DNA of 64,000 nt, from NCBI GenBank assembly GCA_965203445.1, contig OZ241883.1, forward strand, positions 1,216,001-1,280,000, given 5' to 3'. A program made the translations under genes and the position numbers. Source of the DNA: Candidatus Oxydemutator sp. (GTDB taxonomy: Bacteria; Pseudomonadota; Gammaproteobacteria; Poriferisulfidales; Oxydemutatoraceae). This document shows, piece after piece, positions 15,462-21,376 of this stretch. Numbering within the stretch: position 1 is the stretch's first letter; every line of letters begins with the position of its first letter. The notes under the pieces are model-generated. The model had not been told where the DNA came from, made no database searches, and was given only the letters and a program-made list of their open reading frames with translations.

Positions 15462-16559
15462 TCATTGCCGCGCTCCCAAAGCCAGTGCCCGCGCGCGCGA
15501 CCGTTCCCGCTCTTGCGTCGCGCTTTGCGCGGCGTATGCCTCCCATCCCCCGAGGTGCCGTACGACCAGCCGCGCCAGGAAGGCGATGTGTTCGGGCGCG
15601 TCGTTCAGCGCCGGGATATAGCGCAGTTCGCCGCCGCCTTCGCGCTCGAACAGCGCGCGGTTCTGCATCGCAATTTCCTCCAGCGTCTCCAGGCAATCCA
15701 CCGCAAAGCCGGGGCAGAACACGTCCACCCGGGCGGTCTTGCGCCGCGCCAGTTCGCGCAAGGTCGCATCGGTGTAGGGTTTGAGCCATTCGGCGCGCCC
15801 GAAGCGCGACTGAAAACAAATAAGCCAGTCGTGCTCGGCCAGCGCCAGCGCCTCGGCGATCAGGCGCGCCGTCTTGTGGCACTGGCAGTGGTACGGATCG
15901 CCTTTCGACAGGTTGCGCCTCGGCAGGCCGTGGAACGACAGCAGCAGTTTGTCGCCGGCGCCGTGCTCGGCGCGAAAGGCGCGTATGCGCCGTGCGCAGG
16001 CGTCTATGTAGCCGGGGTCGTCGTGATAGGAGTTGACGAAGCGCGTCTCCGGCAGCCATCGGCGGCGACGCAAGGTGCCGGTCGCGGCGTCGAACACCGC
16101 CGCCGTCGTCGTCGCCGAGTATTGCGGGAACAGCGGAACGATCAGCAGATGGCGCGCGTTTGCGCGGCGCAATCGTTCCAGCTCGTCGGCAAGGCTTGGT
16201 TCGCCGTAGCGCATCGCGGCAACGACGTCCGCTTGCGGCCAACCCGCGTCTTGCACGCGCGTGGCCACCGCGCGCGCGAGCGCCCTCGTGTGCACCAACA
16301 GCGGCGAACCCTGCGGCGACCAGATTTTGGCGTAGGCCCGGGCCGCGCGGCGCGGGCGCAACGGCAGCACCAGCAGGCGCAACAGGAGCCACCACAACGG
16401 GCGCGGAATCTCGACGACGCGCGGGTCGGACAGAAATTCTTTCAGATAGCGGCGCACCGCGGCCGGCGTCGGCGCCTTCGGGGTGCCGAGGTTGACCAGC
16501 AATACGCCGATGCGCGCCGCGCTGCCGTGGTGGTATTCCCCGTCATTGCGGTGGTTCAT
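15462..16559 (-). CDS. hemH: Ferrochelatase
   Basis: LLVNLGTP, EFLSDPRVVE, PQYSATT, SFHGLP, FQSRFG, DCLETLEEI. Confidence 0.96.
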   Translation of the reverse strand: MNHRNDGEYHHGSAARIGVLLVNLGTPKAPTPAAVRRYLKEFLSDPRVVEIPRPLWWLLLRLLVLPLRPRRAARAYAKIWSPQGSPLLVHTRALARAVATRVQDAGWPQADVVAAMRYGEPSLADELERLRRANARHLLIVPLFPQYSATTTAAVFDAATGTLRRRRWLPETRFVNSYHDDPGYIDACARRIRAFRAEHGAGDKLLLSFHGLPRRNLSKGDPYHCQCHKTARLIAEALALAEHDWLICFQSRFGRAEWLKPYTDATLRELARRKTARVDVFCPGFAVDCLETLEEIAMQNRALFEREGGGELRYIPALNDAPEHIAFLARLVVRHLGGWEAYAAQSATQERERSRARALALGARQ

Positions 16560-17133
16560 CTGCGGTGCGCAGCCGGCTGCGCCGAGGGAAGTGCGCCTTC
16601 AGGAACTCCATCTGGTCGGCCAGCACGGTGCGCGCCTGTAGATAGACGTATTCGGCGTGGGTCGGCACGAACGGCACCGCCAGCAGTTTCAGGCCGGCCT
16701 GTTCCGGTGTGCGCCCCGCCTTGTGGTTGTTGCAGCGCTTGCAGGCGGTTACGACGTTGCTCCACTTGTCCTCGCCGCCCTGGTGAAACGGCACGACGTG
16801 ATCGCGCGACAGATCGCGGCGTTGGAAGCGTTCGCCGCAGTACATGCACAGGAAGGCGTCGCGGCGGAACAGCGTCAGGTTGTTCAGCGGCGGCACGTAT
16901 TCCAGCCCGAGGCGCGGATTTTTGCCGTAGGTGGCGATGATCGAGTCCACGACGATCACGCTGCGCCGCCCGGACGCGGCGTTGACGCCGCCGCGAATTC
17001 TGAACAACTGCGCGCCGGCGCTGTAGGCGACCTCGCCCAGGTAGTAGAAGCGCACGGCGTCCTGGTAGCCGATCCAGTCGAGCGGCATGCCGGATACGTC
17101 CACCCGCAGGATTTTCTGGCTGAAGTTGTTCAT
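16543..17133 (-). CDS. HNH endonuclease family protein
   Basis: LFRRDAFLCMYCG, RDHVVP, NVVTACKRCNNHK. Confidence 0.88.
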   Translation of the reverse strand: MNNFSQKILRVDVSGMPLDWIGYQDAVRFYYLGEVAYSAGAQLFRIRGGVNAASGRRSVIVVDSIIATYGKNPRLGLEYVPPLNNLTLFRRDAFLCMYCGERFQRRDLSRDHVVPFHQGGEDKWSNVVTACKRCNNHKAGRTPEQAGLKLLAVPFVPTHAEYVYLQARTVLADQMEFLKAHFPRRSRLRTADEPPQ

Positions 17134-17549
17134 CGCTTCGCTGGATTTGTCGCTCGGAATGGCGCAATTCAAACGGAATTATACACAAACGCGCTACAAA
17201 TCCGGCCCATGGCTCCCTCGCCGTTGGTCGCTCCTTGCCGCACAAGCGGGAATCCGGCAAAAACCGGCGGCACTGGCGGCATCGTCGCCACTGCATTTGT
17301 AGGGGTTTTGCCGGGCGGTCGGGCGGACGCATCGGGTTGTCCTGTCAGCGGATGTATAATGTTTGGGACTTATATACAAAAATGCACCGAAAGCGCTTGA
17401 GAACCATATAAGGCAAAGGGTTTGATAGGATTGACTTTATGCGGTGCTTGCGCCCCGTGACCCGGGGGGCGTCGCCGCCATTTCAAGGGAAACGGCAGTG
17501 AACAAGCAACCGCCCGCTTTTGTTCCGCTGGTTCGGGGAATACTCCGAC

Positions 17550-17576
17550 TGGATTCCCGCTGGCGTGGGAATGGCA
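17550..17576. repeat. REP-like palindrome (GGATTCCCGC...GGGAATG type)
   Basis: TGGATTCCCGCTGGCGTGGGAATGGCA. A partial related copy GCGGGAATCC lies at ~17246. Confidence 0.55.
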
Positions 17577-17772
17577 GATCGGTATCTGTCTGATTTCATT
17601 CCTTTTTTCTTGGGCGTTTTTATCCTGGTTACAATGTGTCCAATCGGGCGAAACGGCGGGCGTGGTTGCCTGCGGAAGCATTAGTGACAAATTTCCCACA
17701 AATTTTTCCACAGAAATTGTGGGTAATTTTTGGGAATTATGTATCAAAATCTACAGAATGACCGTGAAGTAA

Positions 17773-17800
17773 TTGAATTTACATAGAAATATGATATAAT
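17773..17800 (+). promoter_or_regulatory. Sigma70 promoter of tnpB, probably near-leaderless
   Basis: TTGAAT-16 nt-TATAAT with an extended TG. The ATG follows 10 nt later with no Shine-Dalgarno sequence. Confidence 0.6.
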
Positions 17801-17810
17801 TCATTCTAAT

Positions 17811-19082
17811 ATGAAGGTATATAGGACTATCCGCTACAGGCTGCATCCGGGCACGCAAGCCAAAGCCCGCAAGTTGGCGGGTTTGGCGGGGGCGTGCAGA
17901 TTTGTGTGGAATCATTTTGTGGGGAAGTTACGGGACGAGTATCTGGCGTACGGGGGATGCCGGCCATGGTATTACACGTTAGGCAAGCAATTTACTTTGT
18001 TACGGCGTTATTGTGAATCCTGGCTACAGGAATACTCGGCGAACATAGTAAAGAGTTCTTTGAAACCCATAGAGACTGCGTACAAGAAGTTCTATGACAA
18101 GAAGGGCGGGTTGCCCAGGTTCCATGCTTATGGAATACATCAAGAGAGTTTTCCTCTTGTGCCCGGCCGGTTTCGTATAAGAAGGCGCCATCTGCATATA
18201 GAGAAGATGGGTGAGTTTCTGTTGTTTGGTCGTAATCCATATCCGGATGCAAAGCCCGCGTCGGGTACAGTCAAAAGGGAATGCGGGAATTGGTATGCGT
18301 ATGTGGTTTATGCCGTGGAACAGAAAGAGATTAAACGGGAGTACAATTCAGTGGGCATAGACAGGAATGTAGGTCAGGTAACGTGCTCTGATGGAATTGT
18401 ATATCGAATGCCTGATACTACTCGATTAGATGCGCGTAAGCGTCGCCATCAACGTATGGTGGCAAGACGTAAGTGTGGCAGTAGAAAGCACAAGGTAAAG
18501 CCTTCTAACAGGTACTTGCGGGCAAAGCATTTACATGCAGTAGTCAGTAGGAAGATAAAGCAGAAAAGGAATAATTGGTGTCATCATGTAAGTAATGAGA
18601 TAGCAGAGAATTATTCTGTAGTACATTTGGAGGATTTGAATACAAAGGGGATGACAAGGAGTGCCAAGGGCACAAAAGAAAGACTAGGTAAGAATGTAAA
18701 ACAGAAGTCTGGGTTGAATAAGGGGATACTGAATACGAACTGGTATAAGTTTGAGCAATTTTTGGGTTACAAGACCCAAGTGAATTATGTGCCCGCCAAG
18801 GACACGAGTCGTGCGTGTAACAAGTGTGGTCATACGGAAAAGAAAAACAGAGTATCGCAATCAGTATTTGTTTGTGTTGATTGTGGTCATCGGGATAATG
18901 CTGATCTTCAATCATCGTATAACATACATGAGTATGGAGATTATCTATTAGAATATAAGGCCTCCGGGAATGGGGCAACTGGACGTGGAGATGGCGGTAA
19001 GACCCTGAAGGAATTATTGACCGACAGGGCACGGTCTGTGAAGCGTCAAATGGGTACCAACAACCTACGGAATCCTCTGTAG
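17811..19082 (+). CDS. tnpB: RNA-guided endonuclease TnpB family protein
   Basis: N-terminal YRLHP...GACRFVWN, RuvC-I VGIDRN, RuvC-II LEDL, KQKSGLNKGI, Zn finger CNKC/CVDC, RuvC-III NAD...NI. The stop codon lies inside the right TIR. Confidence 0.95.
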   Translation: MKVYRTIRYRLHPGTQAKARKLAGLAGACRFVWNHFVGKLRDEYLAYGGCRPWYYTLGKQFTLLRRYCESWLQEYSANIVKSSLKPIETAYKKFYDKKGGLPRFHAYGIHQESFPLVPGRFRIRRRHLHIEKMGEFLLFGRNPYPDAKPASGTVKRECGNWYAYVVYAVEQKEIKREYNSVGIDRNVGQVTCSDGIVYRMPDTTRLDARKRRHQRMVARRKCGSRKHKVKPSNRYLRAKHLHAVVSRKIKQKRNNWCHHVSNEIAENYSVVHLEDLNTKGMTRSAKGTKERLGKNVKQKSGLNKGILNTNWYKFEQFLGYKTQVNYVPAKDTSRACNKCGHTEKKNRVSQSVFVCVDCGHRDNADLQSSYNIHEYGDYLLEYKASGNGATGRGDGGKTLKELLTDRARSVKRQMGTNNLRNPL

Positions 19083-19121
19083 ATTTTGATACATAATTCC
19101 CTAATTTTTGCCGCACGTCGC
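18955..19121 (+). ncRNA. Putative omegaRNA (scaffold plus flank-derived guide); boundaries approximate
   Basis: Overlaps the tnpB 3' end. GACGTGGAG...TGTGAAGCGTC and GGAATCC motifs parallel common TnpB omegaRNA scaffolds. Predicted hairpins and a GGGAAT/ATTCCC pseudoknot. Confidence 0.6.
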
Positions 19122-19198
19122 CCGTTTGGTGTCGTTCGTCGGAAACTGCGACGACGGTGCGACTGCCACCGCCGCGGCCGAGGGCGCGCTCCCGACCA

Positions 19199-21376
19199 AT
19201 GCCCTCTCCGCTGATCCTGCGGGTCGCAATTCCGTCGGCCTTGCCGAAGTGTCTCGACTACCTCGCGCCGACGCCCGCGCCGTCGCCAGGAGTGCGAGTG
19301 TCGGTGCCGCTGGGGTCGCGCTCGGCAGTCGGCGTCGTCGTCGAGGTGCCGCGCGAGACGCGCGTGGCGCACGCATTGCTGAAACCGGTCGAGCGCGTCG
19401 TTGACGAATCCCCCGTCGTTTCGGCGAGACTGCTCGAATTGTTGCAGTGGAGCGCGCGCTATTACCACCAGCCGCTAGGCGGCGTGTTGCGCGCGGCGTT
19501 GCCGACGTTGGCGCGACGCGGCGCGGCGTTGCGGATTCCGCGCGTCGTGACCTGGGAAGGCGCGCCCGGCCGCGACGAGCCGCCGGCCGCCGCCGTCAGG
19601 CAGAAGGCGCTGCTCGCGCTGCTTCGGGATCGGGGGCGCCACGATGAGGATGCGCTGAACCGCCGCTTTCCGGGCTGGCGTCCGGTGATGCGGCGCCTGC
19701 TCGACAGAGGGCTTGCCGTCCGGCGCGAGGAAGCGATGGCCGGCAAACCGCCGTCGCGGCGCCCCCATCCGCTCAACCGCGAGCAGGCGGCGACGGTCGA
19801 GTCGGTGGCCGCGGACTTCGGGCGGTTCCGCCGCTGCCTGCTCGAGGGCGTAACCGGCAGCGGCAAGACCGAGGTCTATCTGGCGTTGTGCGCGCAGGCG
19901 CTGGAGAGGGGCGAGCAGGCGCTGGTGTTGGTGCCGGAGATCGCGCTGACGCCGCAGACGGTCGAGCGCTTTCGCGCGCAGCTGGGAAGTGCGGTGTGCG
20001 CGTACCATTCGAGGCTGAGCGAGCGCGAACGTTTCCAGTGCTTCAGCGCGGCGCGCGCCGGCGCCGCCGCCGTCGTCATCGGCACGCGCTCCGCGGTGTT
20101 CCTGCCGTTTCGGCGGCTTGCGCTGATCGTCGTGGACGAGGAGCACGACGCCTCGTACAAGCAGCACGACTCGTCTTTTCGTTACCACGCCAGAGACGTT
20201 GCGATCAAGCGCGCCCAGCTTTGCAAGCTGCCGATCGTGCTCGGCAGTGCGACGCCGTCTCTCGAGTCGCTGCGCAACGCGGCGGGCGGCCGCTACGAGC
20301 ACCACCGCCTGGCGCGTCGCGCCGCCGGCGCCGCGCCGCCGCTGTGGCGGGTGCTCGACCTGCGCGGCGCGCGCCTTGACGGCGGCTTGTCGCCCGCGCT
20401 GGTCGCGGCCATGCGCGAACGTCTGGCAAGGCGCCGCCAGGTGCTGCTGTTTTTGAATCGGCGCGGTTACGCGCCGGTCACGTTGTGCCGCGATTGCGGC
20501 GCCGCGCCGTCGTGCACGCGCTGCGACGCGCGTCTCGTGTACCATCTGCGCGAGCACCTGCTGCGCTGCCACCATTGCGGCCTGTCGCTGCGCCCCCCCG
20601 ACGCCTGCGCCGACTGCGGCGGCGAGTTGCGGCTGGTCGGCCTCGGCACCGAAAAGATCGAAGAGAAACTGCGGCAGTTGTTTCCCGATGCCGGCATTGT
20701 GCGCGTGGACGCCGACGCGGTGCGGCGCAAGAACGAATTGCAGCACCGCCTTACGCTCATTCGCCGCGGCGACGCCGACGTCGTGCTCGGGACGCAGATA
20801 TTGGCGAAAGGGCATCATTTTCCGGCGATCACGCTGGTCGGCGTCGTGCACGTGGATCAGAGCCTTTTCGCGCCCGACTTCCGCGCGCTCGAACGCTTCG
20901 GCCAACTGGTAACGCAGGTCGGCGGGCGCGCCGGGCGCGGTGCGGACGCGGGCGAGGTCATGTTGCAGACCCACCACCCCGACCACCCGCTGCTGCAAAC
21001 GCTGTTGAAGAGCGGTTACGCCGCGTTCGCGTCGCAACTGCTCGCGCAGCGCGAGGTTGCCGGACTGCCGCCGTACCGCCACCTTGCCGTCGTACGCGCG
21101 CAATCAAGCGTCGCCGGCGAGGCCATCGCCGTGCTCGACCGCGCCCACCGATTCTCGCGCGACATGGCCGCGCGAGAATCGGTGCACATCTACGAACCAG
21201 TGCCGATGATGATGGAGAAAAAGGCCGGCGCCTACCGCGCGCAACTGTTGCTGAGCGCCGGCCGTGCGCGCGCCTTGCACGCCTGCCTGTCGGCCTTGCT
21301 GCCCGAAGTGCGCAAGCTCGCGCGATCGCGCAAACTGCGCTGGCACGTGGACGTGGATCCCTTGGAGGTGGTGTGA
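19199..21376 (+). CDS. priA: Primosomal protein N' helicase
   Basis: GVTGSGKTEVY, VDEEHD, LNRRGY, Zn-finger CxxC pairs, QVGGRAGR, terminal DVDPLEV. Confidence 0.97.
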   Translation: MPSPLILRVAIPSALPKCLDYLAPTPAPSPGVRVSVPLGSRSAVGVVVEVPRETRVAHALLKPVERVVDESPVVSARLLELLQWSARYYHQPLGGVLRAALPTLARRGAALRIPRVVTWEGAPGRDEPPAAAVRQKALLALLRDRGRHDEDALNRRFPGWRPVMRRLLDRGLAVRREEAMAGKPPSRRPHPLNREQAATVESVAADFGRFRRCLLEGVTGSGKTEVYLALCAQALERGEQALVLVPEIALTPQTVERFRAQLGSAVCAYHSRLSERERFQCFSAARAGAAAVVIGTRSAVFLPFRRLALIVVDEEHDASYKQHDSSFRYHARDVAIKRAQLCKLPIVLGSATPSLESLRNAAGGRYEHHRLARRAAGAAPPLWRVLDLRGARLDGGLSPALVAAMRERLARRRQVLLFLNRRGYAPVTLCRDCGAAPSCTRCDARLVYHLREHLLRCHHCGLSLRPPDACADCGGELRLVGLGTEKIEEKLRQLFPDAGIVRVDADAVRRKNELQHRLTLIRRGDADVVLGTQILAKGHHFPAITLVGVVHVDQSLFAPDFRALERFGQLVTQVGGRAGRGADAGEVMLQTHHPDHPLLQTLLKSGYAAFASQLLAQREVAGLPPYRHLAVVRAQSSVAGEAIAVLDRAHRFSRDMAARESVHIYEPVPMMMEKKAGAYRAQLLLSAGRARALHACLSALLPEVRKLARSRKLRWHVDVDPLEVV

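Follow-up and report, generated by a model that had tools for sequence, protein, structure and literature searches.

A TnpB gene between IS1595-type terminal inverted repeats in Candidatus Oxydemutator, and a predicted guide RNA that draws on the transposon end

What kind of mobile element carries a tnpB gene between terminal inverted repeats (TIRs) and a target-site duplication (TSD), and might the encoded protein act upon the site into which such an element inserts? This question is raised by a locus within a 64,000-nucleotide stretch of a Candidatus Oxydemutator genome (the whole stretch is designated here as the window), in which a 1370-bp element (17732-19101) was found to contain tnpB as its sole long sense ORF (17811-19082). 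The sequence GGGAATTATGTATCAAAATCTACAGA forms TIRs that are perfect over exactly 26 bp (left, 17732-17757, plus strand; right, 19076-19101, minus strand) and represent the longest inverted repeat within window positions 17000-20000, and the 8-bp sequence TAATTTTT abuts the element flush on either side (17724-17731 and 19102-19109, plus strand). The left TIR (GGGAATTAT...) is of the IS1595 type, an end type shared with elements encoding an IS1595 transposase. The GC content of the element is 44%, compared with 63.6% for the genome. A preliminary description had reported a 1370-bp AT-rich unit with tnpB as its only gene, perfect 26-bp TIRs and an exact 8-bp TSD; each of these features was recovered, and the TIR/TSD-bounded tnpB element is confirmed as real, not a product of chance.

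A contig from public run X3 (another study, ~95% alike) joins position 17723 to 19102, skipping 1378 bases (1370 plus 8), and therefore lacks exactly the element and one TSD copy, representing a precise empty site with a single copy of TAATTTTT. In three same-genus genomes, the flanking HNH and priA-like genes are present and the element is absent between them; the empty site that the preliminary description had proposed to seek in relatives was thus located. Its suggestion of recent movement held in part: the empty site in a close strain speaks for it, but an identical second copy is absent, the nearest full copy being 83% identical at the amino acid level. The HNH gene (16543-17172, minus strand) encodes a stand-alone 209-aa endonuclease (PF14279), adjoins a ferrochelatase gene and is 84-85% conserved in the three relatives. 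The priA-like gene (name inferred from sequence) lies directly downstream of the element, in the region of 19102-19200, so that read-through of an omegaRNA would enter its 5' region. Upstream, a lone TIR relic of the same family (17365-17390) is 96% identical to the right end of the genome's element at 431038, with no partner found; the region around it (17220-17501) has no coverage by contigs of the X3 strain. Between 17689 and 17726, two 9-mers (17704 and 17718) resembling the DnaA-box consensus form a palindrome, which is kept in two relatives, and the last of these overlaps the predicted target-adjacent motif (TAM) and the first TSD bases. Identification of the insertion site as oriC was rejected, the GC-skew minimum being far off at 908 kb.

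The deduced TnpB protein (423 aa, plus strand, with its stop codon within the right TIR) was shown to contain the RuvC residues D184, E274 and D365 and a C4 zinc finger (C336, C339, C355 and C358), in agreement with the three acidic residues and the finger noted previously. It scored above the cut-off of the NCBIfam profile guided_TnpB (181 bits against 100) and below those of IS200_TnpB (141 against 425) and IS607_TnpB (70 against 350). Together with this profile match, the HTH/WED, RuvC D-E-D and C4 zinc finger domains constitute the domain set of an OMEGA nuclease. Across the family described below, the catalytic triad is kept in 75/75, 74/75 and 74/75 proteins, and dN/dS values range from 0.09 to 0.42 across 16 pairs, indicative of a catalytically intact TnpB that probably possesses nuclease activity. 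A candidate sigma70-like promoter (TTGAAT-16-TATAAT, TG-extended; 17773-17800, plus strand) precedes the gene and is weak when taken alone, since three sites of this type were found where 2.8 are expected.

The genome, a single contig of 2.38 Mb with 100% completeness, was shown by tblastn and blastn to contain 18 tnpB-like loci, 16 of which are bounded by GGGAA(T/C)TA-type inverted ends (13 full-length loci with 55-100% protein identity and three deletion derivatives). TSDs with at most one mismatch flank 11 of these TIR-bounded loci and differ between them, and the two remaining loci are short fragments. The deletion derivatives are located at C1:247602-248387, 2222918-2223424 and 757576-757755, and a lone left end at 2003520; the TIRs of the first derivative are identical to those of the window element, and the first two derivatives retain the omegaRNA scaffold, making them candidate stand-alone guides in trans. 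A 163-bp MITE at C1:113341-113503 likewise has ends of the family type, but lacks a clear TSD.

Neither Y1 TnpA (PF01797) nor serine-recombinase TnpA/resolvase (PF00239) yielded a match in this genome. Its sole PF12762 match is a 307-aa IS1595 transposase (NF033547), which is located outside the tnpB element, in a 2616-bp element (C1:1978350-1980965) that shares the end type of the tnpB copies, is flanked by an 8-bp TSD and carries a passenger gene encoding a 411-aa adenine methyltransferase-HNH fusion. The TIR of this autonomous element is identical to that of three sister tnpB copies at 24/26 positions and to the window TIR at only 21/26, so that the window element may in fact be moved by a different transposase or by one that has since been lost; its end matches that of an autonomous IS1595 element from another genome at 22/24 positions. 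A weak match to an ISL3 transposase was observed at C1:1076041-1076412.

With TIRs and a TSD present, subterminal hairpin ends lacking and Y1 TnpA absent, the element does not conform to IS200/IS605, nor, in view of the absence of a serine-recombinase TnpA and the low IS607_TnpB score, to IS607, as the preliminary description had maintained. GG-terminal TIRs in common with the transposase-bearing element and an 8-bp AT-rich TSD are those of a non-autonomous IS1595 element, no DDE_Tnp_IS1595 transposase being encoded within the unit. The terminus may fit the ISNwi-subgroup pattern (GGnnatTAT), as the preliminary description had suggested. An AT-rich TSD of 8 bp is given as a trait of the IS1595 family (PMC8101967). 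Mobilisation in trans by a DDE-family transposase, as had been proposed, is supported by the 16 TIR-bounded loci and the same-ended transposase element; the search suggested for this purpose returned both further copies with different TSDs and an IS1595 transposase. It is therefore very probably an IS1595 transposase that moves the tnpB element in trans.

Relatives were found in metagenome-assembled genomes (MAGs) including those of Ca. Porisulfidus, Ca. Poriferihabitans, Arenicellales, Caldilineaceae, Rhodothermales and Dadabacteria, hosts that are probably for the most part sponge symbionts. Approximately 190 loci were examined (duplicates, fragments and decayed copies included), of which 95 displayed both TIRs and a TSD, corresponding to 82 non-redundant elements once 13 duplicates had been removed; three spurious TSD calls (L299, L313 and L314) had likewise been left out before this count. 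Most other full-length family loci carry worn versions of the same ends. Family matches were obtained in 6/401 genomes of a class-wide sample (E 1e-40) and in 2/301 genomes of a phylum sample around genome G027. Viral contigs yielded distant TnpBs only (up to 37% identity over long matches), 1/76 of which passed the TIR and TSD filter, apparently by chance. One insertion (L002, L024, L295 and L296) recurs, TSD included, in two genomes that represent different species (G001/G044 and G040), which suggests an older shared or exchanged allele.

In a careful phylogenetic tree, the TIR-bounded TnpBs form one clade (100/99) relative to 9 to 13 outgroups, a thin outgroup sampling. The nearest annotated TnpBs are 30-36% identical and of the IS200/IS605 type, and the four that were inspected end in a hairpin plus GATGTCAA; ends of this type were found in none of the family members examined. 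The phylogeny with flank analysis that had been recommended thus separates a single TIR-bounded clade from IS605-ended relatives.

An IS1595 match is present in 34/35 genomes carrying a family TnpB, and the right TIRs of 25/71 IS1595-type tnpB elements match the end of an autonomous element at 22-24/24 positions. Among 80 fetched IS1595 regions, 56 represent TSD-confirmed, tnpB-free elements with the same end type; the other 24 were excluded as control regions (eight without ends, four wrong calls, eight without a TSD and four with other end types). These control transposases derive from the same genomes and may not be the mobilisers themselves. IS1595 elements often contain passengers (element size 1.2-4.9 kb), but tnpB was found inside a TIR-bounded IS1595 element in none of the 80 regions. 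Similarly, none of the 82 tnpB elements encodes an intact cognate transposase within its TIRs, neighbouring transposase genes being nested or decayed insertions, and an autonomous element with both transposase and tnpB was not found. Other IS elements are nested in or adjacent to L042, L054, L044, L411, L448, L458, L466 and L548; IS110 was confirmed in L411, decayed IS1595 pieces were seen in genome G566, and others are presumably IS1380-like and IS630-like. In screens of gene neighbourhoods, nested copies of this kind could pass for a 'DDE association'.

Eleven TSD-confirmed members of the clade (~32% identical to the window TnpB) were shown to possess GGCGCTTC...TGTGTGGAA ends, which in the same genomes also bound ISL3 transposase elements (NF033550) of 1344-1348 bp with 8-bp TSDs. 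When tnpB-bearing and autonomous ISL3 ends were compared, left ends agreed at 15-24/24 positions and right ends, at best match, at 18-22/24. The ISL3-ended members constitute a clade (100/100) inside the TIR clade, and the best tree nests them among IS1595-ended members (96/89), although monophyly of the latter, with the ISL3-ended members as sister, was not rejected by the AU test (p 0.427). A single TnpB clade, as delineated from sequence, therefore uses the ends of two unrelated DDE families that generate 8-bp TSDs, IS1595 and ISL3.

A 142-nt omegaRNA scaffold, overlapping the 3' end of tnpB and the right TIR, was predicted at 18960-19101 (plus strand). Stem 1 (18960-18976; GCCTC-C-GGGAAT-GGGGC, pairing GCCTC with GGGGC) presents the loop GGGAAT (18966-18971), whose complement, ATTCCC (19096-19101), occupies the final six positions of the right TIR and is the putative 3' strand of a pseudoknot. 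Stem 2 pairs GACGT (18982-18986) with GCGTC (19043-19047) and encloses a variable stem; as helix 3 of the covariation analysis, it is paired in 97% of cells with two-sided changes in four of its five pairs. A terminal hairpin (19053-19094), the 3' arm of which is the inner right TIR, would replace the right-end hairpin of IS605 elements; its median z-score is -2.7 over 82 elements, with 67/82 below -1.5. Folding of the window scaffold as a single sequence was not more stable than that of shuffled sequences (z 0.12), and a search of Rfam returned nothing credible (two matches, E 0.37 and 0.51). A reading of the motif CGTCAA as the remnant of an IS605 right end, with the guide located internally, was rejected, as the motif belongs to the 3' strand of stem 2.

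Across the family, loop hexamer and TIR tip change together. The pairs comprise GGGAAT/ATTCCC (41 ends), GGGACT/AGTCCC, GGGAGT/ACTCCC, GGGAAC/GTTCCC, GGCGCT/AGCGCC (12 ends) and others, with GGGATT/ATTCCC (16) and GGGACT/AGCCCC (7) as imperfect types, and the held-out genome G566 contributes a further pair, GGGGAC/GTCCCC. Pairing was observed in 633/678 cells of 113 right ends (shuffle maximum 588), and the 22 distinct loop/end types pair at 116/132 positions compared with 102.5 after shuffling, a value that 0/10000 shuffles attained; relatedness inflates these shuffle controls and affects the slide control less. In the latter, 95.2% of pairs are formed over 47 rows, compared with 35-55% for slid partners, and the pseudoknot helix displays two-sided changes in three of its five pairs. 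In elements with non-identical TIR tips, the loop pairs better with the right tip than with the left in 30 cases, equally well with both in 12 and less well with the right in three. ISL3-ended members possess the loop GGCGCT, which fits their own tip. This covariation argues for an omegaRNA 3'-end pseudoknot that closes at the transposon end, with six loop bases seemingly re-tuned to each end type, IS1595 or ISL3. The omegaRNA is very likely transcribed through the right TIR, which would provide both its terminal hairpin and the 3' side of the pseudoknot.

In ISDra2, the stem-1 loop pairs with positions -6 to -2 before the guide, and a match of about 12 bp is needed for targeting (PMC10097598). 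Applied here, this geometry would have the guide start with base 1 of the right TSD, and would place the TAM directly before the left TSD. Based on the ISDra2 geometry, the pseudoknot and the TAM position, a 16-nt guide was predicted at 19102-19117 (plus strand), consisting of the TSD and the flanking 5' region of the priA-like gene, with the right TSD copy as the 8-nt seed, a register that derives from the pseudoknot and the TAM position. A second 12-nt match to this guide in the genome is preceded by TGG and would be a self-target under a 12-bp rule; no second match of 14 nt is present.

The predicted TAM position of the window element reads GGG (17721-17723, plus strand), in which family statistics assign the signal to the G at 17723, the base preceding the left TSD. 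At this position (-1), the 82 elements display G in 61, A in 19, T in two and C in none, compared with 11 G, 21 A, 14 T and 10 C at the 56 TnpB-less IS1595 sites (p 1.7e-10 for G). The bias is one-sided, the mirror position on the right being C in 5/50 cases and thus not enriched. When one member per 70% protein cluster was retained, 14 G, three A and one T were obtained, and in a held-out set from genomes G566 and G027 (35 loci, 14 without a confirmed TSD) G was found in 21/21 TSD-confirmed elements; C is absent at -1 from all 103 TSD-confirmed elements, near-identical young copies included. The ISL3-ended members follow suit, with G in 11/11 compared with 9/21 ISL3 control ends. A at this position, mostly as TA, clusters in TnpB subclades (nine changes on the tree compared with 16.3 after shuffling); the alignment columns that separate the A from the G class are clade markers, and no TAM-determining residue was assigned among them. 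The flank bias thus appears to be the signature of a one-base TAM, and the TAM very probably comprises the one or more bases that immediately precede the left TSD: G for the most part, TA or A in some subclades and never C.

The ends, TSD, empty site, further copies, partner transposases, covariation and flank bias are all observed, and they are best explained, in our judgement probably correctly, by a non-autonomous DDE-type element whose only gene encodes an active TnpB with a TIR-built guide RNA. An IS1595 transposase supplied in trans would mobilise the element, and the omegaRNA would be read through the right TIR with the guide beginning at the right TSD. TnpB would then cut the element-free allele, which consists of the TAM, one TSD and the flank. 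The left filled junction would be spared since, in spite of the TAM, its match to the guide ends after 8 to 11 bases (~8 being provided by the TSD; never above 11 in the 82 elements, which falls short of the ~12 bp required by ISDra2), and the right junction, a full match, since it follows the CCC of the TIR. Repair from the filled allele would retain or spread the insertion, as described for IS200/IS605 TnpB by Meers et al. As the transposase does not choose the TAM base, TAM-adjacent insertions would have been enriched after insertion, or through TnpB at the moment of insertion.

The latter possibility, i.e. that a TnpB ribonucleoprotein, scanning for a TAM and cutting or not, biases integration by the transposase so that the G/R rule arises at insertion, is regarded as unlikely, albeit the most credible of the alternatives. 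The lack of C at -1 extends to near-identical young copies, for which enrichment by homing would require fast selection and which target choice at insertion fits as well, and genome G566 contains 104 tnpB matches (E 1e-30), many of them decaying through TAG stops, compared with 14 mostly broken or weak IS1595 matches. However, a specific protein interface is hard to reconcile with a single TnpB clade being paired with two unrelated transposase families, a guide that stems from the old flank has no means of addressing a new site, and homing accounts for the bias in population-consensus genomes. If tnpB were instead passive cargo of a tIS-like IS1595 derivative, in keeping with the passengers of 1.2-4.9-kb IS1595 elements such as the methyltransferase-HNH gene, the flank bias would have to stem from unsampled transposases. 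This is improbable in the light of purifying selection with an intact triad, of the covariation between pseudoknot and TIR tip, and of a bias that is one-sided, in exact TAM register, follows the TnpB tree and is absent from the 56 IS1595 and 21 ISL3 control ends.

A single event in which an IS605-type element, complete with ends of its own, landed in a MITE, as the IS200/IS605-type nature of the nearest annotated TnpBs might suggest, is effectively excluded, because the TIR-bounded copies fall into one clade (100/99) with dozens of separate TSDs. Moreover, the hairpin and GATGTCAA-type ends of the 30-34% identical relatives do not occur in the family members examined, and only 24-79 bp separate the element end from the start codon in many copies.

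The preferred reading, an active TnpB on a DDE-type element, leads to a broader proposal, held tentatively and at a little under even confidence: that these proteins represent a TnpB clade not yet described, distributed over several phyla of sponge-type symbionts and specialised for DDE transposons with 8-bp TSDs, which would use a one-base TAM (G, or A/TA in subclades) and the TSD as guide seed, and would have switched between IS1595 and ISL3 through changes to six bases of the pseudoknot, the bias reflecting either a homing footprint or TnpB-steered DDE integration. The family makes testable what role TnpB plays for TSD-leaving transposons whose transposase does not fix the TAM, and would represent a worked solution in which the TSD serves as seed, the TAM lies outside it and the TIR tip acts as both pseudoknot strand and self marker. 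It also brings a matched control (the same ends display no bias when TnpB is missing), along with a naturally occurring change of transposase partner. If the proposal is true, the flank bias would record, at the level of the genome, either homing or the steering of DDE integration by TnpB, compact TnpB editors would gain targeting range from the one-base TAM, and the clade would furnish naturally occurring compact nucleases with hardly any TAM requirement.

The presence of TnpB in TIR/DDE elements has been in print since 2023. In the available text of Altae-Tran et al. 2023 (PMC10691335), six DDE-associated TnpB branches (DDE-1 to DDE-6, defined by a DDE gene within 1 kb) are described with inverted repeats, solo copies in trans and a modular end hairpin; DDE-5 is called plasmid-associated and has a TA motif 8 bp upstream of the end. 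That text does not name IS1595 or ISL3 as TnpB partners, IS1595 appearing only in a profile list; the partners listed in the available part of a 2026 review (PMC13565253) are ISL2, IS630 and IS1031. By title or abstract, no publication was found that deals with TnpB in IS1595, ISXO2 or ISL3 ends. As in the DDE branches, so far as they are described there, the window family carries TnpB between TIRs, with solo copies in trans. Unlike them, it lacks an intact cognate transposase in cis or within 1 kb as part of the element, and, unlike the plasmid-associated DDE-5, the best plasmid matches of two family proteins reach only 33-36%. The window family may nevertheless be identical to the DDE-5 branch. 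The finding is a well-supported variation on this published theme, and its interest lies in the apparent coding of a pseudoknot by the TIR, a TAM footprint with controls and the use of two transposase families' ends.

With IS200/IS605 TnpBs (ISDra2; IS609-like and IS1341-type), the family shares its protein family and triad; the omegaRNA has the stem order of IS605 relatives and, as in the available account of ISDra2, overlaps the gene end with a stem-1 loop pseudoknot to the last pre-guide bases. However, TIRs and an 8-bp TSD replace the subterminal hairpins, Y1 TnpA is missing, and the predicted TAM is not the transposase target motif and spans 1-2 bases compared with 4-5. Like IS1595 tIS and derivatives, the elements possess GG-terminal 24-26-bp TIRs, an 8-bp AT-rich TSD and passenger genes; unlike autonomous IS1595 elements, they encode no transposase, their right TIR doubles as predicted RNA scaffold and their flank bias is one-sided. 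The eleven ISL3-ended relatives resemble autonomous ISL3 elements from their own genomes in their ends (identical at 17-24/24 positions) and in having an 8-bp TSD, and differ from these in that their right tips are held to GGCGCT/GGCACT, in line with the loop; the window copy is not ISL3-ended. The parallel drawn in the preliminary description with eukaryotic Fanzors stands in so far as Fanzor1 is likewise a TnpB homologue carried by TIR/TSD DDE transposons. Fanzor1 is described as having the 5' TSD within the TAM and the 3' TSD in the scaffold, and as lacking a pseudoknot (PMC13565253), whereas the window family keeps the pseudoknot, with the TSD as predicted guide seed and the TAM outside it, and the parallel is therefore only partial.
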